Assembly: GCF_004010195.1 (NCBI RefSeq) | Contig: NC_057718.1 | Coordinates: forward strand, 41,882,444-41,946,443 | DNA length: 64,000 bases | DNA from: Chiloscyllium plagiosum | Taxonomy: Eukaryota | Direction: 5' to 3' | Made by a program: the position numbers and the translations under genes | Notes under the pieces: model-generated | What the model was told of the DNA's origin: nothing | The model's input: the letters and a program-made list of their open reading frames with translations, nothing else | The model's database searches: none | Shown here: one piece after another, positions 4,500 to 38,663 of the stretch | How positions within the stretch are numbered: position 1 is the first letter of the stretch | Layout of the letters: each line of letters starts with the position of its first letter

Positions 4500-4670
4500 G
4501 AAAGCAAAACAAAAAGTGCTGGAGAAATTCAGCAGGTCTGGCAGCATTTGTAGAGAGACAAACAGAATTAATGGTTTGAATTAAATTTGACTCTTCCTAT
4601 GCTGTGTTTCTCCAGCACTTTCTATTTTTCTTTCAGATCTTCAGCATCTCTCGTATTTTGTATTTATTTG
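4500..4670. mobile_element. Old palindromic Penelope-derived mini-element
   Basis: AAAGTGCTGGAGAAA...TTTCTCCAGCACTTT inverted arms, related to 28880-29165. Confidence 0.65.
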
Positions 4671-15780: not shown

Positions 15781-17224
15781 TAGGCTTGTTGCTTCTCTGC
15801 TGCATTACTGTTCTTTATCTACCATTGTAACCTTAGTGGCCTGAATTCACCCTCTGTACAGAGATTCCAATTCCCTTTAAGAGGAGCAGGCAGGCTGTGC
15901 CGTTTGAAGCAGCAGTCGGACATTCTGCCAGACCTGCTGAGTTTCTCTAGCAATTTCCATTTTGTTTCTGATTTCTAACATCCTCAGTTCTTTCGGTTTT
16001 TATTTAGAAGTGGAAAGGTTGTTTTCCTGTGGAAAACTGAAGCATTAGGAGCTATCTAACCTTAACCACTGCTGATTCCCCAGCTGAGTGTGCAGCCAGA
16101 CAGCTGTACACTTTGTTTTGAACCACATGTTGCAGTTTCGATAATGAGCAGGCACAAAACTTACATCTGTCTGCATTAATGGGACTGCACATGGAGTAAA
16201 TGCATTTTGAGACCAGCACCCGATATCATTATTGTTGCAAATATAGTTAAGGAGTATCTGGAAATAAACAAATAATGTATTTCCTTCTTTCCTTCTTTCC
16301 AACCTCATGTTTCTATGATATATGACTATTACTTGGTCAGACCAAGCTTAGATTTTGTGCAAATCCTGTTCTGGACCTGCATGGTTTGCTTTACTATTGA
16401 AGAGCTATGAATAGAACTGAATATTATAGCAATGTCAGTAAACTGCTCCACTCCTATTAGAGAAAAAGCAGTAATTAAGCAATTGAAGCCGGTTGAGTCA
16501 AGGATGCTTTCCTGAGTTTAATCACTTTGTTGTTGCTTTATTGCATTGCAAGCTGTAGACAGAAAATAGGGCACTCTGTCACTTTGAGTCTGGCAGAAAT
16601 GTGATGGAAGAGCTGGAAAATATAACAGGACCTGGCATCTGGTGGATCCTAACCTTCCCAGCTACATTCTGCAAGAGCCAATTTGAGTCAGTGTCTAAAA
16701 GGGCACCCACTCTATAGGGAGGGTGGCTGAGAGAGAGAGGAAGCCCATAACTGGTACATCCTCATCTGTGGCTTGGCAATGCTGATGAGGCCTGTCAAAT
16801 GGCAGCAATGAATTCACCAGGCATGGGAATTGGTCTGGTTCCCTGGAGATATTTAAAATATTTAAAGCAGCTTTGGATTCCTTATAATGTTGTTGTAAAG
16901 GAACTTCCTCAAAGGTTTATTGGAAGATTTCTAGATATCAAAGATGTCAGGGGTGAGGGCATAAAGGCCTCATCTAGACTGAAGGACTAAACATGCTGGT
17001 GGGAGGATGTCATCACAACTGCATTATGCAGCATCACTCCACTGGCATTATTACAATTAGGAAAATTTGCCAACTTCAAAGAGACATCGGGTTCAATACA
17101 AATTTTTCCCAGTGAGCCAATCCTGGTTCTTAAACAAGTATGAAAGACAAGTGTTCAATATCATAGAGAAATCATTTGAGCTTTTGTTTCACTTTTTTTT
17201 ATTGGTACCTGTTCTGAACAGTCT

Positions 17225-19210: not shown

Positions 19211-20055
19211 CTTAGATAGACAGTTACAATGATCAATATCCCATCTGCATCAGTCTTGCTGCCAATGTCGCATGTTGGGAATATAAGGAACAAAGCAGTT
19301 TCTTAGCAATGAGAAGAGTTGGTAAGGATGAGGACTGTACATGCTCTTCCATATGATGAGACATGCTGAGCCTCAAGAAGGAGGGTCATGTCTCCATCAA
19401 TCATTTATTTCAGCCTCAGTGTGTGCAGCAACCAGTAAGGGTGCCTCACTGATGCCCTCCTCAAAACATGCTTCTACCTTCCTCAGCGCAAGTCTTAGTG
19501 ACTTAAGCTCCACCATCTTCAGTTGCTTCATCAAAGACCTTCCCACTAGCATAAGGTCAGAAGTGGACATGTTCGCTGATGATTTCATAACGTTCAGCAT
19601 CATTCGTGATTCCTCAGATACTGAAGCAGCCCATGTTCAAATGCAACAAGATCTGGACAATATCCAGGCTTGGGCTGACATGTGGCAATGACATTCATGC
19701 TGTACAAATGACAGGCAATGTCCATCTTCAATAAGAGACCATCTAACCACCATCCCTTGACATTCAATGGTGTTACCATCACTGAACTCCCCACTGTCAT
19801 CATCCTTGGGGTTGACATTGACCAGAAATTCAACTGGACTGACCACATAAACACAATGTCTACCAGGGCAGGTCAGAGGCTAGCAACACTGCATTGTTTA
19901 ACTCACCAAAGCCTGTCCACCATAAACAAGGCACAAATCAGGAGTGTGATGAAATACTCCACACTTACCTGGATGGGTGCAGCTCCAATAACACTGAAGA
20001 AGCTTGACTCCATCCAAGACAAAGCAGTCTTCTTGATTGGCATCACATCCAAAGA

Positions 20056-20580
20056 GGAGAAAGTGAGGTCTGCAGATGCTGGAAATCAGAGCTGAAAATG
20101 TGTTGCTGGAACAGCGCAGCAGGTCAGGCAGCATCCAGGGAACAGGAGAATCGACGTTTCGGGCATAAGCCCTTCTTCAGACCACAACAACACGACAGTT
20201 GGAGGAAGAGCGCCTCATCTTCCGCCTAGGAACCCTCCAACCACAAGGGATGAACTCGGATTTCACCAGTTTCCTCATTTCCCCTCCCCCCACCTTGTCT
20301 CAGTCAAATCCATCGAACTCAGCACCGCCTTCCTAACCTGCAATCTTCTTCCTGACCTCTCCGCCCCCACCCCAGTCTGACCTATCACCCTCACCTTGAC
20401 CTCTTTCCACCTATCGCATTTCCAACGCCCCTCCCCCAAGTCCCTCCTCCCTACCTTTTATCTTAGCCTGCTGGACACACTTTCCTCATTCCTGAAGAAG
20501 GGCTTATGCCCGAAACGTCGATTCTTCTGTTCCCTGGATGCTGCCTGACATGCTGCGCTGTTCCAGCAACACATTTTCAG
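20056..20580 (+). mobile_element. Young truncated Penelope-like element with inverted terminal copy
   Basis: Arms 20092-20180 and 20491-20580 are near-perfect reverse complements; middle encodes TRQLEEERLIFRLGTLQPQGMNSDF (GIY-YIG C-terminus); TSD ATCACATCC(A/C)AAGA at 20042 and 20581. Confidence 0.9.
20486..20524 (+). ncRNA. Minimal type I hammerhead ribozyme motif (family A)
   Basis: CTGAAGA (20492-20498)-A-GGGC-ttat-GCCC-GAAA (20512-20515)-CGT-C; palindromic ACGT in place of helix III. Activity untested. Confidence 0.7.
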
Positions 20581-20958
20581 ATCACATCCCAAGAACCAAC
20601 TCCCACCACCACTGATGCTCAGTAACAGCAGTGTGTACTATCTACAAGATGCACTGCAGAAATTCACCAAAAATCCTTAGATAGCACTTTTCAAACCCAT
20701 GATCACTTCCATCTAGAAAGCCAAGAACATCAGATACATAGCAACACCACTACCCTCAAGTTCCCCTCCAGGCCATCCTGATTGGAAATATATTACCATT
20801 TCTTCACTGTCACTGGTTCAAAGTTCTAGAATTCCCCACCACTCAACAAATGGAATACCATTTCACTCCAGACCTCTGATCGACTTCGACGAGTAGCTCC
20901 TAGATATGGCTGACCAGACCCTGGTTGCTGGTTTTGTATCTGCTTGCCTGACATTATA

Positions 20959-21172
20959 TGACATGGAGGAGCTGGTGTTGGATTGGGATGGACAAAGTTA
21001 AAAATCACACAACACCATGTTATAGTCCAACAGGTTTATTTGGACGTACAAGCTTTCGGAGTGCTGGTGTTTCGTCAGGTAGCTACCTGATGAAGGAGCA
21101 GCACTCCGAAAGCTTGTACATCTAAATAAACCTGTTGGACTATAACCTGGCATTGTGTGATTTTTAACTTTG
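20959..21172. mobile_element. Spacer-less palindromic Penelope-derived mini-element
   Basis: 90-bp arms 20993-21082 and 21083-21172, centre CAGGTAG|CTACCTG. Confidence 0.85.
21084..21118 (+). ncRNA. Minimal hammerhead ribozyme motif (family B)
   Basis: TAC-CTGATGA (21087-21093)-A-GGAG-cagca-CTCC-GAAA (21108-21111)-GCT-T-GTA; helix I TAC/GTA. Confidence 0.7.
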
Positions 21173-21544
21173 ATGATATATGATTCTCCTGACTGCTTAT
21201 GTTGAGTCCTGTTGGGCTATCGGTATTGATAGTGCATTGGAGCTTCAGCCACAGCCAAAGACTAACAGGCATGGCACAGCATGGCAAGGCAGGATGAAGT
21301 GAGCCAAGCATTAAGAGAGAAAGGAAGCAATGCTGCAATGCAGCCTGGTCGAATCCATGAGCTGCGTGCCTGTCCCTGCACACAAGGTATTTTTGTAGCA
21401 GCCTTTCAGTGCTAGTTGCTGGCACACCCTGCAATGCAAGTCTGAACTGCCTAAGGATTTGGCAAGTGGAGGCCAGTGTATGAAGCTGGTGGCACTGAGA
21501 TGCTGTTTTGCACTGAACAACATGGAGCGTCTTTACAGCCATCA

Positions 21545-22085
21545 GTATTTTGGTCGCCTTGCTATAGGAAGGATGTTATTAAACTGGAAACAGTGCAGAA
21601 GAAATTTACAAGGATTTTGCCAGGAATCAATGGTCTGAGTTATAGGGAGAGGTTGGAGAAGCTAGTACTTTTTACTTTAGAGCATAGGAGACTGAGGGGG
21701 GGGGGGGGGGGATCTTATCAAAATGTATAAGATCATGAGAGACATAAATAGGGTTAATGCACTCAGTCTTTTCCCCAGGATTGGGGACCGGTAGACTAGA
21801 GGGAGTCAGTTTCAGGTTAAAGGGGGAAAGAATAAAAGGGAACCTGCGGGGCAATTTTCTTTTATACAGAGGGTGGTATGCATAAGGAATGAGCTGCCAG
21901 CGGACATGGTTGAGGCAGGTACATTAACAACATTTAAAAGGCATTTGGACAAATACATGGATAGGAAAGGTTTAGAATGATATGGGTCAAGTGCAGGGAA
22001 ATGGAGGTAACGTGGATGGACATTTTGGTCAGCCTGGACCAGTTTGGGCCAAACATCTCTGTGCTATTGGATTCTACGACTCTGT
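21545..22085 (+). mobile_element. 5'-truncated CR1 LINE
   Basis: FWSPCYRKDVIKLETVQKKFTRILPG; 3' tail ATTCTACGACTCT. Confidence 0.9.
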
Positions 22086-22599
22086 GAGTTGATGTCACCA
22101 GGTACCTGCTCTGATGTCAGGTAAACTCAATGTTTAGTTTGCTCATGGCAAATGGACGAATAGAAAGCTGTGTATTAATGAGGTGAGATGTGCAGTTAAT
22201 AAGGTTAACAAGCAATAATCTCCCTTAATAGGTAACTCACCACAGCCCAGTGATAATCTCACCTTGCACCTGGAATTTAGTTAAAAGCTGGAACAAGTTG
22301 CTGGACTTCTTTCATGATTCTGCCACATTTCTCGCCATTGTCCACATTATTCAGGTCCCTATAGAAGTCCATCGCTAGTTCTCTTGTGTAGATGTAATCG
22401 GATGACTGAGCCCATCAAAAAGCAGTTGGTCAAACAAGTGAACAAGCAGGTTAGGAAGCAGTTAAATGGGATTGGAAACCATTTGGACTGAACAAGCCGA
22501 TGAGCAAATGTATTGCAAAACACCCAGGGCACACATCAGCAAGTAGGTTGGGAAGCAGTCAGAATGGGTCAACATTCACTTCAGCTGATGTGGCTGGAA

Positions 22600-23135
22600 T
22601 TTCTTTATGCGCTTGTGAGACATAGGCATCACTGCTGGCCTAGCATTTGTTCCATTCATTCCTGATGAAGGGCTTTTGCCTGAAATGTCGATTTTCCTGC
22701 TCCTCGGATGCTGCCTGACTTGCTGTGCTTTTCCAGCACCACTCTAATCTAAACTCTGATTTCCAGCATCTGCAGTCCTCACTTTTGCCTAGCGTTTGTT
22801 GCCTGTCCCTTACTGCTCTTAAGTCGAGTGGCTTGCTGGGCCATTTTAGAGGGCAGTTAAGAACCATCCATTTTGCTGTGGGTGTGGAGTCACATGTAGG
22901 CCAATACAGGTGAAAATGGCAGATTTCCTTCCCCGATAGTCATGAGTAAACCATATGGATTTTTCTGACAATCAGCAATAGTTTCATGGTCATCAGTAAA
23001 TTCTTAATTCCAGATTTTTTTATTATTGAATTCAAATTCCACTGTCTGTCATGGCAAGCTTTGAACCCTGGTCCCCAGAATATTGCCTGGAACCTCTATA
23101 TTAATAGGTAATACCAGTAGACCATTGCTTCCCCT
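22600..23135 (-). mobile_element. SacSINE1-like Deu-SINE, interrupted at 22652-22786
   Basis: Matches recalled shark SINE pattern (GAGTCACATGTAGGCC...ATTGAATTCAAATTCCAC...GAACCC); related copy at 30590. Confidence 0.75.
22652..22786 (+). mobile_element. Penelope-derived terminal fragment with hammerhead motif
   Basis: CCTGATGAAGGGCTTTTGCCTGAAATGTC; TSD GCCTAGC(A/G)TTTGTT at 22638-22651 and 22787-22800. Confidence 0.85.
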
Positions 23136-23601
23136 AACGTTGCCTTCTGCATCTAGAATTTCCTATGGTCTTGTTTGGGTAGAACTTAATTACCCCAGTA
23201 GCTGGATAGCTGTGGTTTAGCACCGACCTCAAGATGTCCTTAATGTTTGTATATTTTCACCCTCAGGAGGCACCATCATTGATCACTTTATGTTTCTCCA
23301 TCAAATTAGTATGGTAATGCAGTTTACAGGAAATCCCAATTATTCATGGGTCTCTGGTGTGGGATGTTGGAGGAAACCTGAGAATCTGTCAAAATGTCAG
23401 AATTTGTGCTAGACCATGGCATATTCACTGGTCATTATCATTGATACATACATTTCATGAAAAAGAAGTCTTTTCTGCAGGTGTGTTTCAATGCTAAATC
23501 TGGTATCATGAAATAGACCTACTGGGATGGGAAATCTCCATGGATATGAAGCCATGTTTTTTGCTAAACTAACTAATTTTAAAAGTTAACTCTATTCATT
23601 A

Positions 23602-23814
23602 CAGGAAGTCCCCAGGTTACAAACGAGTTCCTTTTTTTTCCTGCTGTTCATAAGCCGAATTTGTGTGTAAGTCAGAACAGGTACGGGTTAATTAGTCCGC
23701 CTGTTCATTCGGATGAAACATTGTACGTAACTCAGAGTTTTAAAAATGAGAAGCTGGAGGTCGGTTCGTAAGTACAGGACGTAAGTCAGACGTTCGTAAC
23801 ATGGGGACTTCCTC
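23602..23814. mobile_element. Tc1/mariner (Tigger-like) MITE
   Basis: TIRs CAGGAAGTCCCCAGGTTAC / GTAACATGGGGACTTCCTC flanked by TA on both sides. Confidence 0.85.
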
Positions 23815-24092
23815 TAATAGGTATTATGAGAACTACCAGAAAACATGGGAATTGATCATCATTATCGTGCAGATTGACACAGATTGAGTGAAACTCCGAA
23901 TGGATCGTGATGATTCTACAAATTTGTGCAATATGTTCATTCTTGAACTCTGGGAAATGCCAAAACCTGGGTAAAACCATTTCCTGTTTCTTCTAAAAGT
24001 TGATGAGAAAAACGATCAAGCTGTATCTCCAGCAAGCAAGGAGATAGTCGTCTATTTTATATTTTATACATGTCTCTCTGTTGAAGGTAGCT

Positions 24093-24500
24093 ATGATGTG
24101 GAGATACCGATATTGGACAAAATCAGAAGTCACACAACACCAGGTTAAAGTCCAACAGGTTTATTTAAAATCACAAGCTTTCCCAGTGCTGCTCAGGTGC
24201 AGTGGAGGGAAGTACACATTCATTTGTTATTCAGACACTTGACACTTCATGCACATTGTTTGACACTTTTGATCACCTGCATAGACTTGTTATTCAGCTT
24301 GTCGATGTTCCACTCACAATATTTGTATTTATCTGTCGACATTCCCAATTACTTGGAATTATCTTACCATTATCTCTCCGCCTACAAATTCTGTGCCTGT
24401 GCACTTCCCTTTACTTCACCTGATGAAGGAGCAGTGCTCCAAAAGCTTGTGATTTCAAATAAACCTGTTGCACTGTAACCTGGTGTCATGTGACTTCTGT
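24093..24500 (+). mobile_element. Penelope-derived mini-element with inverted hammerhead-bearing ends
   Basis: CAGAAGTCAC...CAACAGGTTTATTT...ATCACAAGCTTT left arm inverted at the right end; CTGATGA at about 24420 with GAAA decayed. Confidence 0.8.
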
Positions 24501-24735
24501 CTCTATTGAAGCATAGCCTTTGTACTCATTACTTTTTTTTTCCTTTAAATACAGAGAAATAGTAAGGTTCTAGAAAACATGCAAACATGAGGACTCCAAC
24601 ATTTTTTCTACTTATAACTTCGAACAAAGAATGCACAAGTGTTAATGAAATGGATTTACAAAAGATTAAAAAAATCCCAAGTTCCAACCACAATTGGCTA
24701 GAATGTCCCTTTAAACCCATTTAATCCCTTTAAAT

Positions 24736-24978
24736 GCCAGGATATGTATGATGCAAAGATTGTGATCCTGTGCAAGAACAAGGGTCACCACAGCAGATGC
24801 AACAACTTTGAGGCATCTTCCTGCTCAATTTCATGAGGTAATTATTTGCTTGTGTTGCCCTTGTCAGATTGCAGATCCTGCCTGAATGCATCTACCTGAA
24901 TTCCAGTGTAGTTTCAGACAAGACAATTGGAATGGCCTTCTCAGTTGGCAGCTGCAAGGGAAATGCCAAGAACAAAGT
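24736..24978 (+). mobile_element. RTE-clade LINE RT fragment
   Basis: QDMYDAKIVILCKNKG...CNNF.GIFLL...RLQILPECIY...QLQGKCQEQ resembles RTE QDMRDAKIVTLYKNKGDRSDCNNYRGISLL. Confidence 0.8.
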
Positions 24979-24981
24979 ATT

Positions 24982-25107
24982 GGGGTGGCACGGTGGCACA
25001 GTGGTTAGCACAGCTACCTCACAGCACCCGGGTTTGATTCCACCCAAGAGCGACTGTCTGTGTGGAGTTTGTACATTCTCTTCGTGTCTGTGTGAATTTC
25101 CTCCAGG
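24982..25107 (+). mobile_element. HE1-like SINE 5' part, truncated
   Basis: GGGTGGCACGGTGGCACAGTGGTTAGCAC head and TGTGTGGAGTTTG core. Confidence 0.8.
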
Positions 25108-25486
25108 TCAACTTGTGTTCTCTGTAGCGGGCCAACACCTTCAACATATTGTCTAGCTATCACCATTGTTAACAGTTAACCCGAGAATGCAACTTTTTAA
25201 AAAAAGGTTTCGTGATTTACACATGAAAGAAGTGAAATGATCACTGTATTCTAATTGATGAAAGGCTTAACAGACAATCAATTTTTCAATGTATAATTTC
25301 AGTTACATCATACTGTAAATTTTTGCTATAAATTCTGAGTGTTAGGATTGAGCCCTCCACTACCACCTGATGAAGGAGTGTCGCTCCGAAAGCTAGCGTG
25401 CTTCCAATTAAACCTGTTGGACTATCACCTGGTGTTGTGTGATTTTTAACTTTGTACACCCCAATCCAACACCAGCATCTCCAAAT
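25108..25486 (+). mobile_element. Penelope-like 3' end with intact hammerhead core
   Basis: CTGATGA (25367-25373)-A-GGAGT-gtc-GCTCC-GAAA (25388-25391)-GCT-A; tail matches 21083-21172. Confidence 0.8.
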
Positions 25487-25791
25487 CAGGTTTATTTGAA
25501 ATCACAAGCTTTTGGAGCACTGCTCCTTCATCAGGTGAAGTAAAGGGAAGTGCACAGGCACAGAATTTGTAGGCGGAGAGATAATGGTAAGATAATTCCA
25601 AGTAATTGGGAATGTCGACAGATAAATACAAATATTGTGAGTGGAACATCGACAAGCTGAATAACAAGTCTATGCAGGTGATCAAAAGTGTCAAACGATG
25701 TGCGTAAAGTGTCAAGTATCTGAATAACAAGTGAATGTGCACTTCCCTCCACTGCACCTGACAAAGGAGCAGCACTGGGAAAGCTTGTGAT
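25487..25791 (-). repeat. Near-identical inverted copy of 24170-24467
   Basis: ORF-track translations 24197(+) and 25446(-) differ at only about 3 of 89 residues. Confidence 0.9.
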
Positions 25792-26419
25792 GTGACCATC
25801 AGAATCAGGAAGACAAATGTCATGCTCCAGCATGCTGCTACCCTGGTATCTATCAGCATTGACTATGTGATGCTGGAAGTTGTTGATTACTTCATATATT
25901 TAAGCTCCTGTCACTTGATGCCTGAATCAACACACACATTGCAAAATGTTATGTTCAAATTGAATAAGTGAATGTGAAATAACTGAAATCTTTTTGAGAA
26001 CACTAAATTGGGAATCTGCCAAACGTGCATCCTCCGAACACTTCTCTGCTGTCATATAGGGCAATTTTTGCTAGGCAGGAGAAAAAGCGAAACAGTTTCC
26101 ACTTTTGATATCTTTCACGTACTGTCTGCATATTTGGGCGAAACATATTCATTATCTCAGTGGTTCTGGAGTGGGCCACTTTCACCATCATACACTTATT
26201 GCTAATTCAGCAATTTCTGTGATCACTCAGTTTCCAATATGACTGTGTACTCAAAAATGTTCAGTACAGTAACTGGCCACTGGGTCACAGCCTCCTGTGT
26301 GTTTAAGCTGCCACTACAGGGAACATCTGCAAGTGCGATAGAGGGTAGGTGGTCATTGACACTTACAACTGGGACACATTCGCTGACAGCTGAAGTGTCG
26401 AGACCCTGTTTGAAAGAGG

Positions 26420-27960
26420 TAAGAAACAAAAAAATAAAGAATTGCAAGTGCTGGAAATCTGAAACAAAAACAGAAAGAGCTGGAGAAACCCAGCAGTTCT
26501 GGCAGGAGAGAAAGCAGAGTTATCATTTAGAGTCCAGTGACCCATCTTCTGAACTTATTGGAGCTAAGAAAAGGCGGAAGATATCCTGTTGCTGAGGGTT
26601 GGGGTGGGGGGGGGGGGGGGGAATGGGGGGAAGGGGATGGTGATGATGGAGCCCAGAGAGAGACGATAGCAGTTGTGCACAAAAAGGGATGGATAATGGT
26701 GAGCCTGGGAGAAAGAATAGGTATTAATATGGACCATTACTGGGCTAAAATGGCTGTGCTGGATGGCTCCATTAGTGGAGCATTAATGACCGTTAGCGGC
26801 TGTGCTGAAATCAGCCCATATGATGACAGTGCCTGATATATGGATGTTGTGGGAAGGCTATGGAAGAAGGTGCTCAAGCCCTAAAATTATTGAGCTCAAC
26901 ATTGAATCTTGAAATTGCAGGTTCTAATGGAAGGTGAGGTGCTGTTCTTTCGACTGGCGCTGAGACTCACTGGAGTGCTGCAGCAAACCCAAGATAGAAA
27001 TGCTGTCCAAGAAACACCAGTAGGGCCCCTCTAGTCCTCACTTTCCAACCACCAGCATCCACATCCAAAGGATCATGAGCTACATTTCAGCCACCTCCAG
27101 CAGGATGCCACCCCCAGACACATGTTCCCCTCTCCCTCTCTTGGCAGCCTTCAGCAGGGATCATTTCCATAAGAACATGCAGGTCCATTCCTTTTCCATG
27201 GCTAACACCTCCTCACACTCCCACTGCACCCCTTCCCATGCAAATGGAGAAGGTGCAATACCTGTCTGTTTACCTCCTCCCCGCTCACTATCCCATGCCA
27301 CATATGATTCACCTGAAGCAATGATTCAGCTGCACTTCACTCAGACTAGTCTATTCTATTCACTGCTCACAATATGGTCTTCTCTGCACTAGGGAGACAA
27401 AACGGTGCTTGCTTTGTGGAACACTCATGTTCTGTCCCCAAGCTTCTGGCTGCCTGCCACTTCAAAACATCACCACGTTCCCTGGCCAACATTTCTGTCT
27501 TGGACTTGCTGCAGTACTCCAGTGAGGCTCAGCTCAGGCTGGAAAAACAGCATCTCACTTTCCACTGGGGGACCCTGCAGCCTTCAGGGGTCAATCATTT
27601 TAGGACCTCAGCACCTTCTTCCATGTCCTTCCCCCACCTCCACACACCAAACCCTGTCATCACCAGCACAACCAAACCTATTCTCAGCTCCTAATGGTTC
27701 CTATTAACAGGAAGTTTTCCCATACCATTGTCCATTCCTGCACAATTGCTATTCTCTCACTCTCTGGCTCCATCTCCACTTAACGTTTACCCCTTCCCCT
27801 CCAATCACCATCCCGTCCTCACCCTCAGCATATGCACCACCTTTTTCTAGACACAGTCAGTTCTGTAGAAGGGTCACTGGACCCAAAACATTAACTGTGT
27901 CTTCTCTCCAGTGATGCTGCTAGGCCTATTGAGTTTCTCCAGCAATGTCTGCTTTATTTG
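26420..27960 (+). mobile_element. Penelope-like element (GIY-YIG region, 27020-27960) preceded by an inverted 3' segment (26420-27018)
   Basis: Decayed PLVLTF...HLQQDATPRHMFPS...CNTC...LVYSIHCSQYGLLCTRETK...EAQLRLEKQHLTFHWGTLQPSG; hammerhead-like motif at 27863. Confidence 0.85.
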
Positions 27961-28879
27961 GAAGTGGCATATTATGTGTGCTTCTGAATAATACTGATGA
28001 AGTGCCATTAGCAGGAATCAGGGTGATAATACTATAAGCCCTGGTGTGATGAATAGGTAGAAATCTTTAAGGAGTCAAATCTATAACTGTCCTTTTAACA
28101 GTTTCTCTGTTAATGTGTACCATATCCTTGTAACCTTGTAATAAGTTTCACAGATGCAATAAATTAGATTATGTCTACCAAAAGGGACACTTCTAGTTAA
28201 ACCAGAAGGGGGCTTTCCTCATCCCCAATTGACCATGTGGGCCTGGGGAGAACATATACCTGTACAGTGTATGTAACAGCGAGCAGAAACAAAAAGTTCA
28301 GCTGGCCGAGTAGAGAGGAAAAGCAATAGAGACGGTCATGATAGATTGGGGATCCAGGGTCACCTCAAGCAATGTTTAACATTGATTTGATTATCACTGT
28401 ACAAACTATTATCTTACTAGGTGGAAGGTTGCCTTTGAGTCCCTTAATGTTTTTATGATCTGAAACCTTTGATTTCTGGATGAATAATTAGGGAAACCAC
28501 ACTATTAACCTTGCAAAATTACATTATCATCTAAGTTCTTGTGCACTTTTTCAATCTGAGGATAATTAAGATAGTGGACTTGTTCTAGTTCACTATCTAC
28601 TTATTGGGCACTGGTGTATGACACAAAATGGAGTAAAATTATCAAGATTCATAACATTAGACCATGTTTTCCATGAAACTCTAAAAAGCCTCCTTTTTCA
28701 GATTAAGTATGCGAGGAGCTTTAATTACCTGCAATTTCCATTATCTGTGCAGGAAGGGGAATGCTCCCTTCATTACCACAGATAATTGTTTTTTGCTCCA
28801 CAGATTGTTTTCTTGCTAAAACGGTTCTGTGTTATAAAATACACTGTTGTTCCCAGTTTTAATCAGATCCCACATTATA

Positions 28880-29165
28880 CAGAAACAAAAACAGAAATTA
28901 CTGGAAAACTCAGCAGGGCTGTCAGCATTGGTAGAGAGAAAGCTGAGTTAATGCTTGGGTCCAGTGACCCTTCTTCAGAACAGGTATTAGTGAATCAGAC
29001 AAGTTTTCATAACAATGTGATTCACTAATGCCTGTACTGAAGAAGGGTCATTGGACCCAAAATGTTAACTCTGCCTTTTCTCTCTGCCTGACCTGCTGCG
29101 TTTTTCCGGTAATTTCCGTTTTTGTTTCTGATTTACAGCATCCGCAGTTCTTCAGTTCTTTTTTT
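28880..29165. mobile_element. Palindromic Penelope-derived mini-element (hammerhead family C)
   Basis: Inverted arms GGGTCCAGTGACCCTTCTTCAG / CTGAAGAAGGGTCATTGGACCC; inner palindrome ACAGGTATTAGTGAATCA / TGATTCACTAATGCCTGT. Confidence 0.85.
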
Positions 29166-30589
29166 GGTTAGTGCCCACCCTGCACAGATTGGATGTTAAT
29201 AATCCATACCCTTTGAATTGAAGTCATGTCACTTTTGAGATTATTCCGGATTTCAGACACCCAGGTTGGATGGGATTGAATGCCACTTGGCTCAACTCAA
29301 GGGATGTGAACAAGACTTGAGTGTTACTGTAAACAAAGCAGCAAAACTGATAAGTGATTTGCAAGCCACTGAGAACTAGCACCTAACTGAATTATAACAA
29401 CATCTGGACAATGAGTCTGAAGTTCACTTAACTAAATATCAAATGAAATGTTTTCATAATTGCCCAGTTTTTAGGCAACACTGTTATTGGACAGCTAGAT
29501 TTTGGATAACAACCTTTAAGGGCTAACACAAAATCTATTAGAAATTATTCCACTTTTGTTATATTATAAAAACTGTGTAACTATTAAACATCAGAAAATG
29601 AAATCAGTTGGTCTGGTTAAGCTTGCACCGAAATGTCTTGCTGATTTGTATTTTATGAAAGTGCATCAATGTTGACATTCCAGACCAGAGAAAAGGTTTG
29701 TGACCAAGTCAAAAATTTCATAAGTGTTCTCTGAAATGATGTGTTGCAGCCCTTACTATGCTTTATATCTAATGAATAAATTCTTACTGACACAAAGTGG
29801 CACCACTGAAGATGAAGGCTTTTAAAATCACACAGCAGCATTGTGAACACATTTCATTACAAATAGCTGCACATTCAGAGCTATTCAAGGCGTCAAGTGC
29901 AACTTTGCTACTCTTCTGACAAATTGAAGGCAAATTTAGACTCAGTGAGGTGTAATAGAGATTCAGTGAGAGGATATTATAACAAAGCTAAAATATTTCC
30001 ATGTTAAATATGACGTGATTTACAGTTGGAACAGCATGAGAACTTCTACTCTGCATTAAATTTAAGGTACGCAAGTACTTTTGGAAATGGTATATATCTC
30101 AGTTTCTAAATTGCATAATATTTAATTCATAATTTAGCAGCATAGTCAGCTGGAGCAAATCAGGCAGCCATGAACATTCACATATACCTGAAGCCTTTAA
30201 TGCCAATGACCCATCTGTTTTACTTGATTCATCTAGTTTTAGATATAAACCTCAATAGATGTATGATTTTTAAAGTCTGGAAATATATGTCTTCTCTGTG
30301 TGTAGCAGACTTGAACTGATCAGAATATAGATGAAAAGTTCATACTTAGACCTAGATTCAGAAATCTACTCAGATTTGAACTGAGCTTTAAAACACCCTT
30401 GTTCAGATTCTCTTCAAGGCCATACATATGACTTGTTGACCATTAAGGAGCCTTCAGTAAGGAGTTCAACGAGCTAACAATCAGTCCTGAATTATTTCCA
30501 CCACCTCCCAATTCCCCAAAGGCCAAAAATAAAATTTACAATCCACTAAAACAAACACTTTGGTCCAAATTCAGAATTATCTTCACTCC

Positions 30590-30915
30590 CTGTAATGTCA
30601 GTGGATTAGCAATCCAGACTCTCAGGCTAATATTCTGTGAAAATGGGTTCAAATGGCAGATAGTGAAATTTGAATTAAATCTAAATCTGAAATAAAAACT
30701 AGTTTGCTGGTGACTACGTAACTATGGTTGATTGTCAAGAAAGCCTATTGGATTCACTAACAGATCTTAGTGAAAGAAATCTGCTGTCTATACCTGGTCT
30801 CACCTGTGACTCTAGACATATGACTCCAGATCCATAGCAATGCAGTTGACTCTAAACTTCACTCGCCCAAGCAATACTTGCCCATCAAGCAATGTACACA
30901 TCCCACAATTGATTA
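30590..30915 (+). mobile_element. SacSINE1-like SINE
   Basis: Reverse-complement similarity to 22800-23135; GGGTTCAAAT B-box-like motif. Confidence 0.65.
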
Positions 30916-31394
30916 AAAGAAAGACAAACTCAATGAACCAGTCCCCTTTTCAAAAACTCGTATTCCGTCTTGAAGTCAGGTCAGATACTAGTCCTGATTA
31001 ACTCTGTAACCTTGGTTGCTGTGCAGAAATTGTTTTGAACCAATGCTCCAGGTGCAATAAAAATGCAGCCAAAGGTGCAAGGCTTTTGAATTAGGTAATT
31101 AACAATACTTAATGATGAAAAACATATATTAAAGAGAAAATGCATAACTGTCCTTAATTTAATAGTAATTGACATTGTGGCAGTCTCTCTCAAAAAGGGG
31201 CAATTCAATTGATATGGGAGGTGGAATAGGAGGAGGATAACAAGTAGAGTGACACAATGGTACAGACGCTAATGTTTTCCGAGATGTGGCTTACTGAAGC
31301 CTTAATGTACCTGTAGCCATGACCTCAGGGTGCATGGTTTTAAAGTTCACAAACATGAATATTCCCCATCTTCATGAGAACAAAGGTCATTGAG

Positions 31395-31565
31395 AAGAAA
31401 CAGAAAGTGCTATAAATACTCAACAGGCGTGGTAGTATCTATGAGGTGACAAACAGAGTTAATTTTTGCAGTTCAATATGGTTTCTCCTAACCTGGTGAG
31501 TTTCTCCAGCACTTCCTGTTTTTATTCCAGATTTCAAACATCCTCAATATTTTGCTTTTATTTTC
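31395..31565. mobile_element. Old palindromic Penelope-derived mini-element
   Basis: AAACAGAAAGTGCT...AGCACTTCCTGTTT inverted arms. Confidence 0.6.
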
Positions 31566-33594
31566 GTCTTTAAAAAGCAATGTTGTGGTAGCTTTTGTGA
31601 TTTGAAATAATAGGGATCATCTTGTCTCTGGGTGTTTGTGTGAAATGGAAGATATTGATTCAGTCACCTGCTACACATCTCTCTTGGTTTTCATCTCGAT
31701 TGACTTCACTTTTGTTGGCATGTGCCATAAAAATGTGTGAAAAATCTCGGATAAGCCAAAGTATCTTTGGCTCATGGAAGCTCATCAATCTCACATCCCA
31801 ACAGTCCTACCATCTCAGAGGCAATTTAAATTTATGCCTTAGCTCTATAACATTTTATACACCTAAATGATTGCCCTTTAAGCATTTTTTCCGAGAAAAT
31901 GCTCCAGCATGAGTTGACTAATCCTTACTCATAGCTCTCCAATTTTAGTCTCCCGATATTTTCTATGTTACAGTGACCAGACAAAAATATAGTGCGTAGA
32001 AACTCATTGTTTCTTAACTGTTTCATAGAATCAAATGCAGGTTCTTGATTATGTCAGCTTACCGCATTATGTTGACATCTAACTGGAGGCACCAAATAAG
32101 AATCGTCTTTGTGTTTGGCCTTTAATTGATGTCATGGATTTCCTGAGTTGAGAGGCCCAATCTGAAGGCATGAAGCTGTGGAAGGCTAACTGCTCCTGGG
32201 GGAGAAATGGGCATTGCTGAGGCAGTTCAGAATTGCAAGGGCCCCTCTTCACAGTAATGCTCACTGCAAAGAAAAGTCAATCACGGACACAGCAGTCAGG
32301 ACTTCAGTGGAGTATTCATGCAGAATGGTTAGCGCTCCACAGGATTGGTTGGGGCTCAGTGCTGATTAAGAGGCATTGATGGCTGCCCCACACTGTCACC
32401 AGGAGGACTCTTACATTTGCCTGCTGGCCTCCAATCTCATCCAGAGCAAAATCTGCCACTGATAGATACTAGCAATGCCATTCCTTTGCCCCGAAATGCC
32501 CTTTTAATGGGCTTAATCGGCAATCAACTATTGTCTTATTGACCTCATTTGTGGCAAGATCAGTGAGAGGTGAAAATGTCCCCAGGAGCAGAACCACACG
32601 TAAATTCCAAAGAGCAGAATTACATTTAAATTCCCTGGAGCTGACTCACATGCTAATTCCCAGGAGCAGATCCAAATGCTAATTCCTTGGTTTCCTCTCA
32701 GTGTTACTTCCAAATGTGCCTCCACAAGACTGAGAAGATTCTATTCATTGTTGCTTGCATAGTCTATCTTGTGCATTGAAAAAGTTTAGCATAATCTTTG
32801 GGGTAAAACACTATATAGGTGCCATGCCCAGTATTCTTTGTTCTGTTTTAATACTGCTGCTATATTTTTGAGATACCAAAGATGATAAGAGCATCATAAT
32901 TTCCCATCAAAGCTTTACTCAGCCAAATTAATGCTGTACGTTTTGCATCTAGATCAGCCTAAAGCCACATGGCTCTCTGTGCTATGGGTTTCTTTAATGA
33001 ACCTTCCTTGTTTAGCTCGGTGAACACTGTGATTATGTTCTTTTGAGGAAGCCAGCAAGGTTGACTTTTTGGTATTTAGTTAAATGCCTGTTAGCATGCT
33101 GTTCAAGCCATGCCAAGATGAACCAGAATAAAACAATTATATTTCTTCAGTTGCTTTACATACCAAAAGTGAGCATAGTTAAGTTCTGTAACATTTGAAA
33201 AATGTTTCTCTTGCTATGGGCTTTTACAACTCAGACTCCTCCTATTCTGTGTACTAATGGACAAATAAAACATTCCAGAATATAAAATAATAAGTCTGCT
33301 TAATTGTGCTGGGCATGCTCACACTAAAATTGTCATCTTCATTAGTTTTACAACTAAGGAATGAGGTAAGAGTGAGGGAGTAATGGGATTGGGATGAAGG
33401 TGGAAGTAACTTGTGTTCTTTGTATTCATATATGTAACTTGTTTATGATTCTGTACAGACTGTGCTAATGTATCACAGCAGATCCTGGCCAATATCATCT
33501 TGGAACCCTTTTGCCACTGGACCAAATGTTCTGCTCTACCAAAACCACGAGGTGGTTGACATGCTACTGTCATTTTACATTAAAAAGAATCAGA

Positions 33595-33776
33595 AACAAA
33601 AATAGAACTTGCTGGAAAAGCTGTGGCAGGACCTGTGGAGAGTTCTGAGGAAGGGTGACTCAACCCGAAATGTTAACTTTGATTTCTCTCTACAGATGTA
33701 AACAAAACAGCTGAGCTTTTTCAGCAATTTATATTTTTGTTTCTGATTTATAGCTTCCACAATTCTTTCGATTTTA
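33595..33776 (+). mobile_element. Penelope-derived mini-element with family C hammerhead motif
   Basis: AGTT-CTGAGGA (33645-33651)-A-GGGT-gactca-ACCC-GAAA-TGT-T-AACT; flanking repeat ATTAAAAAG(A/T)ATCAGA at 33579 and 33777. Confidence 0.75.
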
Positions 33777-35249
33777 ATTAAAAAGTATCAGACATTTTCC
33801 ACTTATCAAAATGAAATTTTGCCAGAAATTAACATCAGGTCCTTAATTTATTACACTTAACCAAAGGAAACTTTTACTAACAACTTTTGTGAGGGAAATG
33901 ACCAACTGGGTAGAATCCGATGCAAAGTGAGTACAGATTTGTCTGGTCTTAATTTCCAAGCTCTCTACACGCTTGTTCTCCTATTTATTTTAAACTGTAA
34001 TTCTCTTTAGTGCAGAATCAGAAATGTCTGCCAACTAATACATCCTGTTGCCATATCATTTTATAAATGCTATTTAAAATGCAACAGATCTCTGGAGGAG
34101 GCAAAAATACATAAAGGATAATACTACACCATCACTGTTATATATCAAAAACATCCAAGAAAACACCAAAATCTTTATCATTTTGCAGATGTTGCAAAAC
34201 AGGGCTTATAGTACTCCACCTTAACTTCCTAAAGTCGCAGATTTTACCTTCAAATTTGATGATGTGTCAAAGTCATTTACTGGTAATGAGTTCTGCGGAA
34301 TTTTATTTTGCTTGGAATTTAATTAATGGTCTGAAGACTTTCCATTGTGATTTGAGCAAATGAATAATAAATCAAGAAAGGAGATTTGTCAGGGAAAGAA
34401 CATCTGTTTCTTACAAGCGTTACAACATGACTACAGTTTGGCTGTGCATTACCAAAGCACTGACAGTAGGAGTCCTCTCCTCGAAAGCACTCTTCATTTA
34501 TTGCTCCATTGAAGGTGAACAGAGCACTCTAATGGGTCTCTGGTGTTAATAAAAGCTTGCAGTTCTCAATTCGTATCCCTGCTTTTGGCTTCTTCTGTCC
34601 TTAGTCCATGCTTTGTTGGGCAAAGCATCAAGATTCTGCAGTGTCAGTGGTTACAGGATGATTAATAGGGACAGACAAATTCATAAGCAGAAACGTTATA
34701 AAATCACTGTTATATTGGTGTCATGTGGCATACCATAGCTTTGCTATGTAAATGGTATGATGATTGAAGCTAAGCAGATTGAGCTAAATTATTCAGGGAA
34801 AACCTAAATTAGCGGTCCTCTTTCACTCGCTATTAGTCTTTTCACCTTTAGCAGTTTCTAGTTTGTATACTAGTGGATGTAAATAAATATTCTAGCATAT
34901 AAAATTGTAAGAGTCTGTGCTGAGTATCGTTCAAGTTACACAATTTTTTGATTTGAATCACAATCAGGGAATGAGATAAGCCATAACTGTGCTGAATTCA
35001 TTCTTGAGCTATGCTTTTGTCAAATCATAAGCTTAATACATGGGTTGAGAACACAGTGGTTTTCTCTTTAGATAGGTTAGTAGTAATGAATATGGAGTAT
35101 GATGTCCACATCACCTCTCGAAATTCAGGGATGACCATTGAGTGTGTTGCTCTTTTGTGTATAGTGGACATTTTGACCCCACAACAAACGATGAAGGAAA
35201 TTTCGCTCGTTTAAATCTTTTCCCCTCATAATTTTTTTTCTCCTTTAGT

Positions 35250-35440: not shown

Positions 35441-36849
35441 CTTTTATTAGCAAGACTCTTGTGCTTTATACAAGTGGCGACTCTTCATGTGTGAGCTTTG
35501 ATTCTTTGTGTTTTAGCAGCATGTTTTACTGTTAAAGGTTTCCCAACCAGGCTGGATCCAGTCACAAAAACAAAATGCTGGAGAAACACAACAGATCTGG
35601 GAGCATCAGTAGAGAGAAAGCAGAGTTAATATTCCAAGTCCAATGAACCTTCTTCTGATGCTTTTGCACATGCATTTCCAATGGGATAAATAGGAGATTG
35701 ATATTTATATATTGATATAGTAGGAAAATGTGTGAGTATGTTTGTGTCTAGAAATAGAACTCTCAAGCAGAACTGATGGTGATTGCAAGATGATTGATGA
35801 AAAGAACAAATTGAGAGAGAATCAATGTGGGTTACAGAAGAAAAAGTAATGAAGTGAAATTAAGAATGAGGATAAATATTTGGGCGAGATGGAAAACATT
35901 TCAGTGGTGATCTGGCTCAGATGTTAGACAAAGGGACATTGGTTAAGGGAGTGGGCAATGGACAGTGGAAAGTGAGAGTTTCTGTGGCACAGGTAGAGGC
36001 TGCATGATACAGGGCCACTGAAGATACATGTAGGGATTTTGCAGGAGAGGTACATAGTGAGCTGGCAGAGGTCGGCTGTTGAACTCTGTTGGATTGCAGA
36101 CAGTATGGAAGTACTAGTAGGTTCCGGTGAACTGGGACTTGCTGGGAATATAATATTGTTAAGATTAGCAACAAGAATATCTGTTGGGAGCATTATTTTA
36201 TGTGGGTCAGGGTAGATTGTCATTTTGAAAATGTGTTGCTGGAAGAGCGCAGCAGGTCAGGCAGCATCCAGGGAACAGGAGAATCGACGCTCCGGGCATA
36301 AGCCCTTTTTGCATAGGTTGAGGAAGGGTCTCCCTTTTCTGGGAGTGTCTCGCCATTTTGTGAAGGTTAGAGGTGGCCACCATTTTGCCAGCTTCAGGAA
36401 ATGATTGTTCTCCAAGGGAAGGCTAACCATTTTTTTTGGAGTGCCAGGGATGCCTTTCTGTGTAAGTGTGTTGTTGTCTTATCTTTTGTGAGGTTTTGCA
36501 GAAGAACCTGGAAAGTTGAGAGGAGATTGCATTTGGGGAGGTGGAATTTGATGCAAGGTAGTAGATGAACGAAGCATGGAACAGATGAAGGTGCAGTGGT
36601 CACATGTGCAACTGTTTATGATCATGCACAGAATGTGCTAGTGTCCCACAGCAAAGTCTGGCACCTAATTATCTTGGAAGCCCCTCGCCATTGGACCTAT
36701 GCCCAGCCCTGCTGAAACCATATGGAGGTTGATGTGCAACTGCCATTCAACAATAAAAGATCAGGCAAAGGTGCCTTTCATTAGTCAAACGATGTTTGAA
36801 AGATTGAATATCAGGACTTTAATGGACAAGCCCAACATTGATCTGAACA

Positions 36850-37035: not shown

Positions 37036-38451
37036 TGAAATGGCTGGTTATCAATCAGAAGTGAGAACCTGGGCTGATTTTCTACTTTCCTTTGCCCAGG
37101 ACAATTTATCATCTCACTTATTTAAATCTATATTCCAGGAATGTTAACTTCAACTAAGCAATATATTCCAAAGTTTTCACATTTCTGATTTGTAAACTGT
37201 GCATGCAATGTTCTTCCAATGTCAGCCTTGCAAAATATTTCTGTTTGCCCAAGAGCAAGTTTCAGACCTTAGTTCTGTTGGACCGCAAGGGGCCTGGAAG
37301 AATTCTAGAGTTGAGGGAGAGTTAGGGGAAAAAGATCTATTTTTAAACACAAAGTACATTTACCTGCGTCAAAGAGTGTCGCAAAGCATTGCTGATTTAT
37401 TATTTGTTTTTTTTCCATTCTTTGTGAAAGAGCAAGGTTCATTTGTTACCCGTGAGCTCCCTGGTGGTCTCATTGCTTGTCCTATATCACTTCTCTGCAC
37501 TGCTTAGCTCTGTGGCCATGACGAGCTTCAACATTCACAGCAAATACTTCATAAATAACATGTTTGTGATACTTTGACCATAGAATGAGGAGTACATAAT
37601 TATGAATATTACCAAGTCAAGTATATAGTTAGTTGCATTGCACAAGATGAAAGTGTTACAAGTGAGACTTCAAATTACATTTAATGGTATTGTTATGCAC
37701 ACTGTTGAAATGTTACATCAAAATATCTCACAAATAGACTGTCCAATGAAAACTATCTGTTTAAATGACTGGACCAACGCAGTTTCCAAACTATTGAGCT
37801 GTGTGGACTCATTACCCATGATGCTCTTGCTGGCCAGGCAATGAAGTCATTGGAGTTGGGGTGGATGCAGGGAGGCAATGAAATTGGTCTATGTCAGTAG
37901 TATTAAGCTGCTCATAGCGTCAGCTATTTTATACCGCATTTGATTTTCTTCTCAATATTGAAATCTAGCTAAACTGCTCGAGGCTGTTCCAAAATAGTTT
38001 CAATGATATTTGTGTTTTCTCAAATCAGAAACATTTGTAGTTCATTTCCTGGCTTCAAAAATCACCGATGGTTGTTATTAGCCTGCATTCAACACCACAA
38101 TACCTTGGCTCTTTTGAACAACATCTCGTCCCAAATATGCCCCAGAAATGGTTCAGCAGGTGAGCTCAATTGGTCATCTGATTGACGCCCATGATGCAAC
38201 TGGCTGATTATGTCAAGAGGATGGATGGAGTCTAGTCCTTGACCTCTTTATTCTGGTGCAGTGTCACCATGCACTGTTTTGCTTCAGAAGCTGTGGAATA
38301 TTTATCCCATTGATTCCCTAAATCTGCAAGGTTTAGTTTTGGAAGTGCTTATGAATGGCAAAAGTCCAATTGCTCCAAAAATTAGACTTTTTTACTGTTG
38401 GGCAAGACTTCTTAGTATGCTGGCATGGTACAACCACCTTTCCTTTACACA

Positions 38452-38663
38452 ACTAAAAATAGAAATTGCTGGAAAGCCTCAGCAGGTCTGGCAGCATCTG
38501 TGGAGAGAAAGCAGAATTCATGTTTTGGGTCCAGTTCTGAAGACTGATCATTGGACTTGAAACCTGCTTTCTCTCCACAGAGATGCTGCCAGAGCTGTTA
38601 AGTTTCTCTAGCAATTTATGTTTTTGATTCTGACTTCCTGCATCCACAGTTCTTTGTTTTTTT
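38452..38663. mobile_element. Palindromic Penelope-derived mini-element
   Basis: CTGGCAGCATCTGTGGAGAGAAAGCAG / CTGCTTTCTCTCCACAGAGATGCTGCCAG inverted arms; CTGAAGA...GAAA in the centre. Confidence 0.75.

Follow-up and report, generated by a model that had tools for sequence, protein, structure and literature searches.

Minimal hammerhead ribozyme motifs in Penelope-like element ends of the bamboo shark Chiloscyllium plagiosum: scale and copy geometry

Penelope-like elements (PLEs) carry minimal hammerhead ribozyme motifs that lack helix III, bear one extra base after position 9 and before 10.1, a G10.1-C11.1 pair and a palindromic 15.2-16.2, form several consensus families per genome and derive for the most part from truncated PLEs, as lone or opposite-strand copies (Cervera and De la Pena 2014, PMC4209133; selected sections of this and the other cited papers are drawn on here). 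We find all of these features in Chiloscyllium plagiosum, in a window of 64,000 nt (NC_057718.1, assembly GCF_004010195.1, positions 41,882,444-41,946,443, forward strand) and beyond it. Helix II here is short (4-5 bp), unlike that of the PLE motifs described, and the scale differs, with 111,207 exact cores versus ~9,000 copies in Xenopus and ~4,000 in coelacanth; no mention of cartilaginous fish was found in the sections of PMC4209133 drawn on. Outside subscription journals and Repbase, we found no paper on shark PLE hammerheads or bamboo shark PLE repeats, nor on PLE strong-stop products, U6-PLE hammerhead chimeras or pLTR polyadenylation. The ribozyme type is already known; what matters is scale and copy geometry. 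The route of inverted PLE insertion and the role of the hammerhead are open questions in the PLE papers drawn on here, and this genome offers many reaction products with base-level ends.

Judged by sequence, the motifs are minimal type I hammerheads located in the pseudo-LTR (pLTR) ends of coding PLEs. The layout helix I-CTGAnGA-A-helix II-GAAA-palindrome-helix I proposed in the initial annotation was recovered in all ten copies it named, at the coordinates given there, and its assignment to the PLE-type minimal hammerhead was borne out by the match to the published motif, with CUGANGA and GAAA-NN-UH boxes and no helix III. An unpaired A at 9.1, also noted there, is present in 116 of 117 copies (A 69/70, B 19/19, C 28/28). 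The first helix II pair (10.1-11.1) is G-C or G-T in 113 of 117, where G10.1 is partly built in as rows were chosen by helix II start. The palindrome at 15.1-16.1 is CG in 51/70 A copies (most others being CpG-type changes), GC in 16/19 B and CG in 25/28 C, 25 C loci having been selected for CG. Helix I is weak in most A copies, with 2 bp followed by a U-U pair in 47/70, and H17 is A or U in families B and C. None of the 13 Rfam 15 rows at E<=5 was a hammerhead.

The three families had been described as unrelated. This was not sustained for A and C, which form one lineage, since natural copies of both align downstream of the core (E 4e-6 and 2e-4) and the C element at 26424-27958 contains decayed A-type endonuclease sequence. 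Apparent compensatory helix change is seen between families and is absent within them, where helices are nearly invariant. Among four families, helix I pairs change as CG/CG/TA/AT at 2.1:1.1 and TA/AT/TA/CG at 2.2:1.2, helix II pairs as GC/AT/GC at 10.3:11.3 and CG/GC/TA at 10.4:11.4, and 15.2:16.2 as CG/GC, which amounts to few independent events. The view that ATGT in family C is decayed ACGT is confirmed by 366 exact ACGT copies genome-wide. CpG positions do mutate 2.7-3.9x faster than other core positions, but the claim that most damage is CpG decay was overstated, because CpG-only changes account for 20/78 damaged A cores, 4/31 B and 0/19 C.

Upstream of each of families A, B and C is a PLE RT/GIY-YIG frame that contains a Neptune-type zinc linker. 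A single ORF with RT followed by GIY-YIG was found in A and B; the A motif is downstream of the frame in 7/12 long A loci, frames of 674-893 aa are open from RT through endonuclease in 5/12, and the B motif is downstream on the same strand in 15/20 B-protein loci. The A endonuclease fragment matches 14 longer proteins, the best of them in Chiloscyllium, Rhincodon and Stegostoma; these proteins match RVT_1 and GIY-YIG, exceeding the cut-off in P0010 and P0013. The B frame carries YIDD and YIGET, and A and B proteins are 29% identical over 196 aa. One locus (L164) has an upstream motif, tail, ORF start and then a second, damaged motif at its 3' end. Inverted 5'-truncated copies, an optional 30-40 bp tail and target duplications also occur, as in Neptune-type EN+ PLEs. 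The CX2-5CxxC linker between RT and EN, seen in A, B and decayed C and common to the Neptune type and Nematis, points to a placement among Neptune-type EN+ PLEs. No GT-AG joint of a retained spliceosomal intron was seen among 15 cases listed of 900, in a stretch without the ORF start.

The prediction of a very large genome-wide motif population was confirmed, with 87,506 exact A cores, 23,335 B and 366 C against 0 matches for reversed-core controls; extrapolation from window and sample counts gives ~0.9-1.35 million arms. The proposed descriptor search yielded 52 matches in 0.98 Mb of blind genome sample and 0 in 10 shuffles. Within the window there are 32 arms (A 6, B 10, C 16), so the earlier figure of at least a dozen copies was an undercount. 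The core is intact in 6/20 window sites tabulated, and three sites (20492, 21087 and 49423) pass the full descriptor with both helices, compared with a mean of 0 in 100 shuffles of the window.

A family A insertion at 20054-20583 consists of an inverted tail-bearing arm (20054-20180, minus strand) joined to a tail-less 5'-truncated PLE end (20178-20583, plus strand), within a 12-bp target duplication with one mismatch (20042-20053 and 20581-20592). It includes a C-terminal piece of the PLE GIY-YIG endonuclease frame (20175-20303, plus; tblastn to P0003 aa 418-460, 67%, E 9e-12), which stops 188 nt upstream of the ribozyme, and a family A minimal hammerhead (20488-20523, plus) with C3 at 20492, helix II at 20500-20511 and a predicted cut after C 20519. 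The A at 20488, four bases before C3 (-4), would be the transcription start. Other family A copies are a solo stub starting at about -6 (22656-22785, plus; CpG-damaged core, C3 22662), a stub with a damaged core at 271 (176-278, minus), a stub truncated inside the core (36223-36310, minus), and a piece at 2086-2345 (plus) in which start-of-ORF sequence (2086-2170) is joined to a pLTR end with a damaged core at 2224, an internal deletion or template jump.

Family B is represented by a head-to-head insertion centred just upstream of the core (20954-21172; intact motif 21087, plus; damaged helix II 21078, minus), two inverted insertions of the GCTT subtype (24088-24502, damaged core 24420; 25480-25791, damaged core 25534, minus), a GCTT end (49231-49545, plus) whose motif at 49423 has G-U pairs in helix II, a head-to-head stub without core (1278-1411), and a GCTA-subtype PLE end with 3' UTR and tail (25130-25488, plus). 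In the latter, the motif at 25367 has an intact core, a broken helix I and a predicted cut after 25395, followed by ATTAAA (25407-25412), the poly(A) signal, and by the site of poly(A) addition (25424-25425), together 25407-25425 (plus).

Family C includes an old element with inverted pLTR arms (26424-27958; damaged cores 26551, minus, and 27863, plus) that encloses the decayed PLE endonuclease (27083-27628, E 5e-14). There are head-to-head insertions at 28871-29165 (damaged cores 28978, minus, and 29037, plus) and 38446-38665 (damaged core 38537), insertions at 33577-33780 (motif 33645, palindrome decayed to ATGT) and 55091-55269 (damaged motif 55143), in both of which the arm starts G-AGTT at -4, and head-to-head stubs without a whole core at 31394-31563 and, C-type and without core, at 4496-4670. 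A stub with a damaged core (35557-35665, minus) and a tail fragment (15922-16005, plus) complete the family.

Arm ends were analysed in a 1 Mb blind genome sample relative to core C3; they derive from local alignment and may be a few bases off, and family D and arms below 88% identity were excluded. Fifty-one of 133 A arms have their 5' end within -6..+2, versus 0.59 per nt further downstream (Poisson p 3e-32), and 14/133 reach beyond -60. Ends near the ribozyme 5' edge were also seen in 24/49 young A arms with long references and in 11/30 B arms, where stops are more diffuse (-12..+1); among intact-core C loci, 22/25 end less than 9 nt before C3 on its upstream side, and a further one ends at -9. 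At the cut site there is no significant excess (A 9/133, p 0.09; B 2/30, p 0.48). The 3' ends are bimodal, at ~+90 and +122-127 in A and +78-91 and +117-121 in B.

Capped full-length L1 copies are recognisable by an additional G (PMC11702581). Here, of 8,346 copies without a templated C, 65 among the first 100 listed have G at -5, versus 12 of the first 100 listed of 9,091 copies in a control one base further in (Fisher p 6e-15; letters counted by eye in one young A subfamily group on one contig end). In the blind sample, copies stopping at -4 showed no G excess (6/23, p 0.53), in a set of mixed subfamilies with 8 templated-C copies. Head-to-head partners are present for 244/372 arms. In 70 of 74 head-to-head insertions exactly one arm has the tail (A 50/52, p 1e-6; B 20/22, p 0.006), and in none do both. 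Both arms belong to the same subfamily in 11/12 pairs (chance 0.21). The tail-less arm extends further upstream in 49/70 pairs (p 0.001); for the 21/70 with the longer tail arm, fold-back copying is an equally good explanation.

In RNA run X19 (one library), 709 reads with poly(A) loose ends put polyadenylation of family B ~30 nt past the predicted cut site; they stem from many B copies, the one at 25407-25425 not being singled out. Hundreds of sense reads span the B core uncut, and no pile-up of starts or ends was seen in this fragmented 3' single-cell library. U6 is joined exactly at the hammerhead cut bond in three loci, sequence evidence that points indirectly to occasional cleavage. A nearest-neighbour model places the active dimer above both rival duplexes and a pair of folded monomers in 7/7 copies, a result that counts against the explanation proposed below. 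Folding of inverted insertions predicts a hairpin in the transcript that hides the ribozyme (helix II probability 0.0 in 3/3 folded), so most copies are likely not working ribozymes.

The motif, copy numbers, RT/GIY-YIG linkage, two 3' ends, target duplications, 5'-end pile-up, extra G and one-arm tail are all directly observed; from the copy geometry we infer two-site run-off on capped, uncleaved RNA. Most copies are probably, though by no means certainly, dead products of reverse transcription running from the tail to the end of an RNA that starts at the first base of helix I. Synthesis would begin within the tail, 90-125 nt downstream, on an uncleaved, probably capped template whose first base would be the first base of the ribozyme helix I, the A at -4 being the putative Pol II start. 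The endonuclease would cut both strands ~9-14 bp apart, with one end priming where the tail ends and the other where it starts, and the two cDNAs would join head to head. Long copies may result from RT priming on the 3' pLTR or jumping to it. Published work and folding suggest that the ribozyme may be a weak cleaver, acting as a dimer or assisted by protein. Cutting would take a 32-nt capped leader off the RNA and, in the 3' copy of family B, detach the poly(A) signal; cleaved RNA would be a minor route for insertion templates.

A more far-reaching account, which we hold tentatively and at slightly less than even confidence, has the shark Neptune transcript start at the hammerhead's first base and be primed doubly at two fixed sites on uncleaved capped RNA; the ~million stubs would therefore preserve, as fossils, a strong-stop step resembling that of retroviruses in a third retroelement class. 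The ribozyme would act as a dimer-locked decapping switch that in B severs the poly(A) signal, U6 chimeras would record germ-line firing, and ACGU versus AGCU palindromes would bar cross-activation between lineages.

It is unlikely that the same elements instead made longer RNA on which a structure or bound protein at the ribozyme 5' edge makes RT stall or switch template, the G being non-templated addition and the inverted arms cDNA fold-back. Locus L049, where arms at -4 and +28 overlap by 4 nt with the helix I complement as microhomology, would suit this, as would the self-priming proposed for PLE inverted junctions (PMC3846280) and the lack of G excess in the blind sample. A structural block, however, should halt RT at the 3' side of the fold (+28..+32) and not after passing it, and the G excess is confined to one position. 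Fold-back cannot add a tail missing from the first cDNA, yet the tail-less arm is most often the longer one.

Somewhat less likely still, the 100-130 nt copies may be a self-propagating SINE- or retrozyme-like family in which solo pLTRs are transcribed from their own internal promoter and PLE protein copies them in trans. Most arms lack coding sequence (14/133 A arms beyond -60), an internal promoter is present in Penelope (PMC2377424), animal retrozymes are traced to pLTRs in a preprint (bioRxiv 2026.07.22.740005), and 60/372 arms have a same-strand relative within 1 kb, the one inspected (L075) being a partial PLE tandem running into the ORF start. Against this, the window has no tandem arrays of the motif, the copies match coding-element pLTRs subfamily by subfamily with ragged ends, in those that begin at -4 the initiator-like sequence is missing its upstream half, and the one deleted form checked recurs in 1/100 sample loci; transcription from longer solo pLTRs would also suit run-off from capped RNA. 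The initial annotation had called the copies mostly non-coding, retrozyme-like derivatives. Most are indeed too short to code, but "retrozyme-like" is unsupported because published animal retrozymes are tandem repeats (PMC7229834; bioRxiv 2026.07.22.740005) and these are dispersed 5'-truncated ends of coding PLEs, largely with head-to-head partners. Identity with non-LTR retrozymes, which consist of head-to-tail units, was not supported in the window, where 0/12 tandem-repeat rows overlap the motif.

That the motif is kept mainly as a promoter, protein-binding or RT-initiation structure with vestigial self-cleavage that never matters in vivo is very improbable, for although arm ends show no significant excess at the cut, sense reads cross the B core, H17 is A or U in B and C, and PAc ribozyme mutants still insert in vitro (PMC11167929), the catalytic boxes, G10.1-C11.1 and palindrome are kept across A, B, C and D with apparently compensatory helix changes, and U6 is joined at the cut bond.

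Three sharp predictions follow from these natural products: capped starts should map to -4, each insertion should involve two primings, and 5'-OH ends should occur rarely at +28. With ~31 intact cores per Mb, a long host transcript will often include one, and dimer dependence together with antisense masking would explain their tolerance. Family B, moreover, spreads a poly(A) signal that is used in RNA.

With described Neptune-type EN+ PLEs (Craig et al. 2021, PMC8557442; Arkhipova et al. 2013, PMC3846280) the shark elements share RT followed by a C-terminal GIY-YIG, the DKG motif (here in A), a CX4CxxC linker (here in A and B), 5' truncation, an inverted copy and a 30-40 bp tail at one end. 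Target duplications occur here as in rotifer PLEs, where they measure 8-10 bp. Unlike in those elements as described, most insertions here are leader only and the one-tail rule is near absolute (70/74).

Poseidon from Anolis (PAc), which belongs to another clade, initiates reverse transcription in vitro from a pair of internal sites, with extension of both strands and use of uncleaved RNA (Frangieh et al. 2024, PMC11167929). Its two start sites bound the tail, as is proposed here, and cutting and extension of both DNA strands with uncleaved RNA as main template is likewise what we propose for the shark. In both the ribozyme lies near the ORF start; the PAc ORF starts inside the ribozyme, whereas the first in-frame ATG in family A is ~165 nt downstream. 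The sections of that paper drawn on do not report that a capped RNA starts at the ribozyme.

Non-LTR retrozymes (Cervera and De la Pena 2020, PMC7229834; Li et al., bioRxiv 10.64898/2026.07.22.740005) share the type I hammerhead, non-coding nature and tie to PLE pLTRs, and the axolotl total of up to 120,000 is similar to the copy number here. The preprint includes one chondrichthyan and counts tandem forms only. Retrozymes are head-to-tail tandem units, whereas shark copies are dispersed solo or head-to-head stubs. Finally, U6/LINE-1 chimeras (Moldovan et al. 2019, PMC6789731) also have a U6 3' end joined to retroelement RNA, by RtcB, which needs a 5'-OH such as hammerhead cleavage leaves. Here, in contrast, the partner is a PLE leader, the joint falls at the ribozyme bond, and the ligation is a presumed one.

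The layout of the motifs in the window equals the consensus of the minimal type I hammerhead (min-HHR) of Cervera and De la Pena (PMC4209133). The initial annotation had assigned them to the hammerheads of Penelope-like elements (PLEs), an assignment that this match upholds, and the ten motif copies it named were all recovered in place. An Rfam 15 scan of the window returned no hammerhead family match, and its miRNA matches at 28954 and 38498 are inverted arms of repeats, not miRNAs.

The family A motif at 20492 lies 188 nt downstream of the end of a GIY-YIG frame. The longer proteins related to this frame combine RT and endonuclease, and those with a named source come from carpet sharks and skates. 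Long genomic A copies hold open frames of up to 893 aa, with the motif downstream of the frame in seven of 12, and locus L164, outside the window, runs from motif through tail (the PLE 3′ extension) and ORF start to a second motif at the 3′ end. The second lineage is family B, whose protein shares 29% identity with A across 196 aa and whose motif is found downstream at 15 of 20 loci. Family C is old and related to A, so A and C are not unrelated, contrary to the initial annotation. A CX4CxxC linker, of the type that marks Neptune and Nematis, is present in A, B and C. A fourth family, D, is absent from the window and was found in a blind sample of the genome, chosen without regard to the motif (24 arms; L093:4920-5000, L035:516-600 and L104). 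Its helix II is longer and has a bulge, and position 9.1 is U. Its upstream sequence looks Poseidon-like. Both the ribozyme and the element that carries it are of known classes. The motifs are not retrozymes, and the suggestion of retrozyme-like derivatives was given up.

Several irregular PLE sequences were seen. At 2086-2345 of the window, start-of-ORF sequence is fused to a pLTR end, and a similar short ORF-start piece stands ahead of the pLTR at L075. The ORF reading frame at L164:2429-2600 is open upstream through tail and ribozyme, with no ATG. The tail of A and C carries a pyrimidine tract plus CAG, resembling a splice acceptor. At L156:4600-5060, an 893-aa PLE frame opens with some four in-frame repeats of a 39-residue unit, which may be an assembly artefact.

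Exact cores in the whole genome number 87,506 for A, 23,335 for B and 366 for C, and reversed-pattern controls gave none, in agreement with the very large ribozyme population that had been predicted. By profile search, the window has 32 arms, and the blind sample, which comprises 100 evenly chosen stretches of 10 kb (0.98 Mb excluding N), has 372; reversed sequence gave none. A strict descriptor matched three times in the window, 52 times in the blind sample and never in shuffles. Exact counts are used because the blind sample is richer in family A than the genome (42 vs 24.6 per Mb). For the same reason, an extrapolation of the strict descriptor to ~190,000 in total was dropped, and the genome-wide total of decayed arms, roughly 0.9-1.35 million, is only a rough figure. 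Among the published counts compared, the minimal-motif density here is the highest. CpG sites mutate 2.7-3.9 times faster than other core sites, but CpG-only damage explains just 24 of 128 damaged cores.

Compensatory helix changes between families occur at 2.1:1.1, 2.2:1.2, 10.3:11.3, 10.4:11.4 and 15.2:16.2, whereas within families the stems are almost invariant and loop II and N7 vary. The covariation is thus between families, not inside them. Pairs were counted on motif-anchored columns, a MAFFT alignment of A, B and C having placed B out of register. The compensation comprises a handful of independent events, short of statistical proof. The hammerhead-like monomer was the minimum-energy fold in three of the seven copies folded, and the active dimer lay above two monomers in all seven. 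In folding, the ACGU and AGCU palindromes paired with themselves and not with each other, and an antisense arm abolished helix II in all three inverted insertions.

What this work adds is the geometry of the copy ends, through which the copying mechanism of PLEs and the role of the ribozyme become testable. The 3′ ends fall at two sites ~35 nt apart, which bound the PLE tail. In head-to-head pairs, the two inverted arms of one insertion, exactly one arm has the tail in 50 of 52 A pairs and 20 of 22 B pairs, and both arms never do; C pairs were too decayed for this scoring (7 of 18 clear). Target duplications of roughly 9-14 bp flank the pairs (by eye, 21 young pairs), so each pair represents a single event. 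At the 5′ end, 51 of 133 A arms in the blind sample stop at -6 to +2 counted from core C3 (mode -4/-3; -4 is 20488 in the copy at 20492). The 5′ edge of the ribozyme is likewise where ends pile up among young arms that have long references (24 of 49), in family B (11 of 30) and at C loci.

In A, the -4 edge does not stem from a splice acceptor, as there is no AG there. The context of the -4 A is TCATTCC in A and TCAGTTC in C, both of which match the initiator consensus of Pol II. In Penelope, the promoter is internal and lacks a TATA box (PMC2377424). Of 100 listed copies, 65 have a non-templated G just before the -4 A, whereas one position further on the figure is 12 of 100; an extra G likewise marks capped L1 copies (PMC11702581). 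The blind sample showed no significant G excess (6 of 23).

In the mechanism we propose, transcription begins at helix I of the ribozyme, and the element protein cuts both DNA strands. The two DNA ends would start reverse transcription from the two tail sites, in the manner of Poseidon from Anolis (PAc) in vitro (PMC11167929); the RT would then run off the capped RNA end, and the two cDNAs would join head to head. Fold-back of a single cDNA could also produce inverted arms and, like double priming, is compatible with 21 of 70 pairs, but it cannot yield the longer tail-less arm seen in the other 49. Given run-off copying and head-to-head joining, most copies are likely dead on arrival, and either masked or lacking a partner.

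RNA that has been cleaved is a minor insertion template at most, since the nine A arms (of 133) ending in the nine bases around the cut, predicted after C 20519 in the copy at 20492, are no significant excess (p 0.09, blind sample). At two of 32 unselected U6 loci (L219 and L234) and at L246, U6 meets family A sequence exactly at the predicted cut bond; L246 is the one real chimera among four matches to a U6 pattern (L245, L247 and L248 arose by chance). None of the 32 is joined at -4. At L234, bounded by a 13-bp duplication, both arms run across one and the same U6 joint. Ligation of U6 to a 5′-OH by RtcB (PMC6789731) would explain the joints at the cut bond; template switching is a possible alternative source. 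Two other unselected loci, L230 and L233, join U6 to A-type endonuclease sequence elsewhere (by eye), showing that U6 can also be joined away from the cut. Separately, the U6 3′ end abuts the 5′ end of a single tRNA-like SINE in ~12 of 20 loci (L225, L228, L232, L235-L242 and L244), and at L220 U6 is joined to tRNA-like sequence.

Copies of tRNA-like SINEs occur in the window at 48539-48640, 50896-50972, 52346-52447 and 57549-57650, and several adjoin or are broken by PLE stubs (short end copies), as at 115-480. Another dispersed repeat, presumably LINE-like, lies at 3233-3864, 10896-11415, 21513-22004, 43732-43992, 46210-46840 and 51515-51624, the last copy accounting for a weak Rfam U6 match at 51517-51624. 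An assembly gap of 744 bases (9674-10417) falls inside a GT-rich repeat.

The RNA reads are from a single-cell poly(A) run with the matching species label, of which 2 in 100 were compared with 20050-25500 at 90% likeness. The 6,050 matching reads mostly derive from other copies. A further run, X20, gave no matching reads, and runs X15 and X6 consist of contigs, which are uninformative on ends. No pile-up of read starts or ends was seen in this run over 20050-25500, and family B reads were 7-10 times sense-biased. Poly(A) begins at 25424-25425 in 709 reads, 12-13 nt past ATTAAA, indicating that the family B poly(A) signal just downstream of the ribozyme (25407-25425) is used. ATTAAA or AATAAA occupies the corresponding place in 49 of 54 B copies, the two alternating between subfamilies. 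As the signal is upstream of both RT start sites, poly(A)-ended B RNAs could not be insertion templates. Since the poly(A) site lies ~30 nt past the predicted cut, cleavage of B RNA would detach the poly(A) tail, in parallel with the detachment by ribozyme cleavage described for Clec2.
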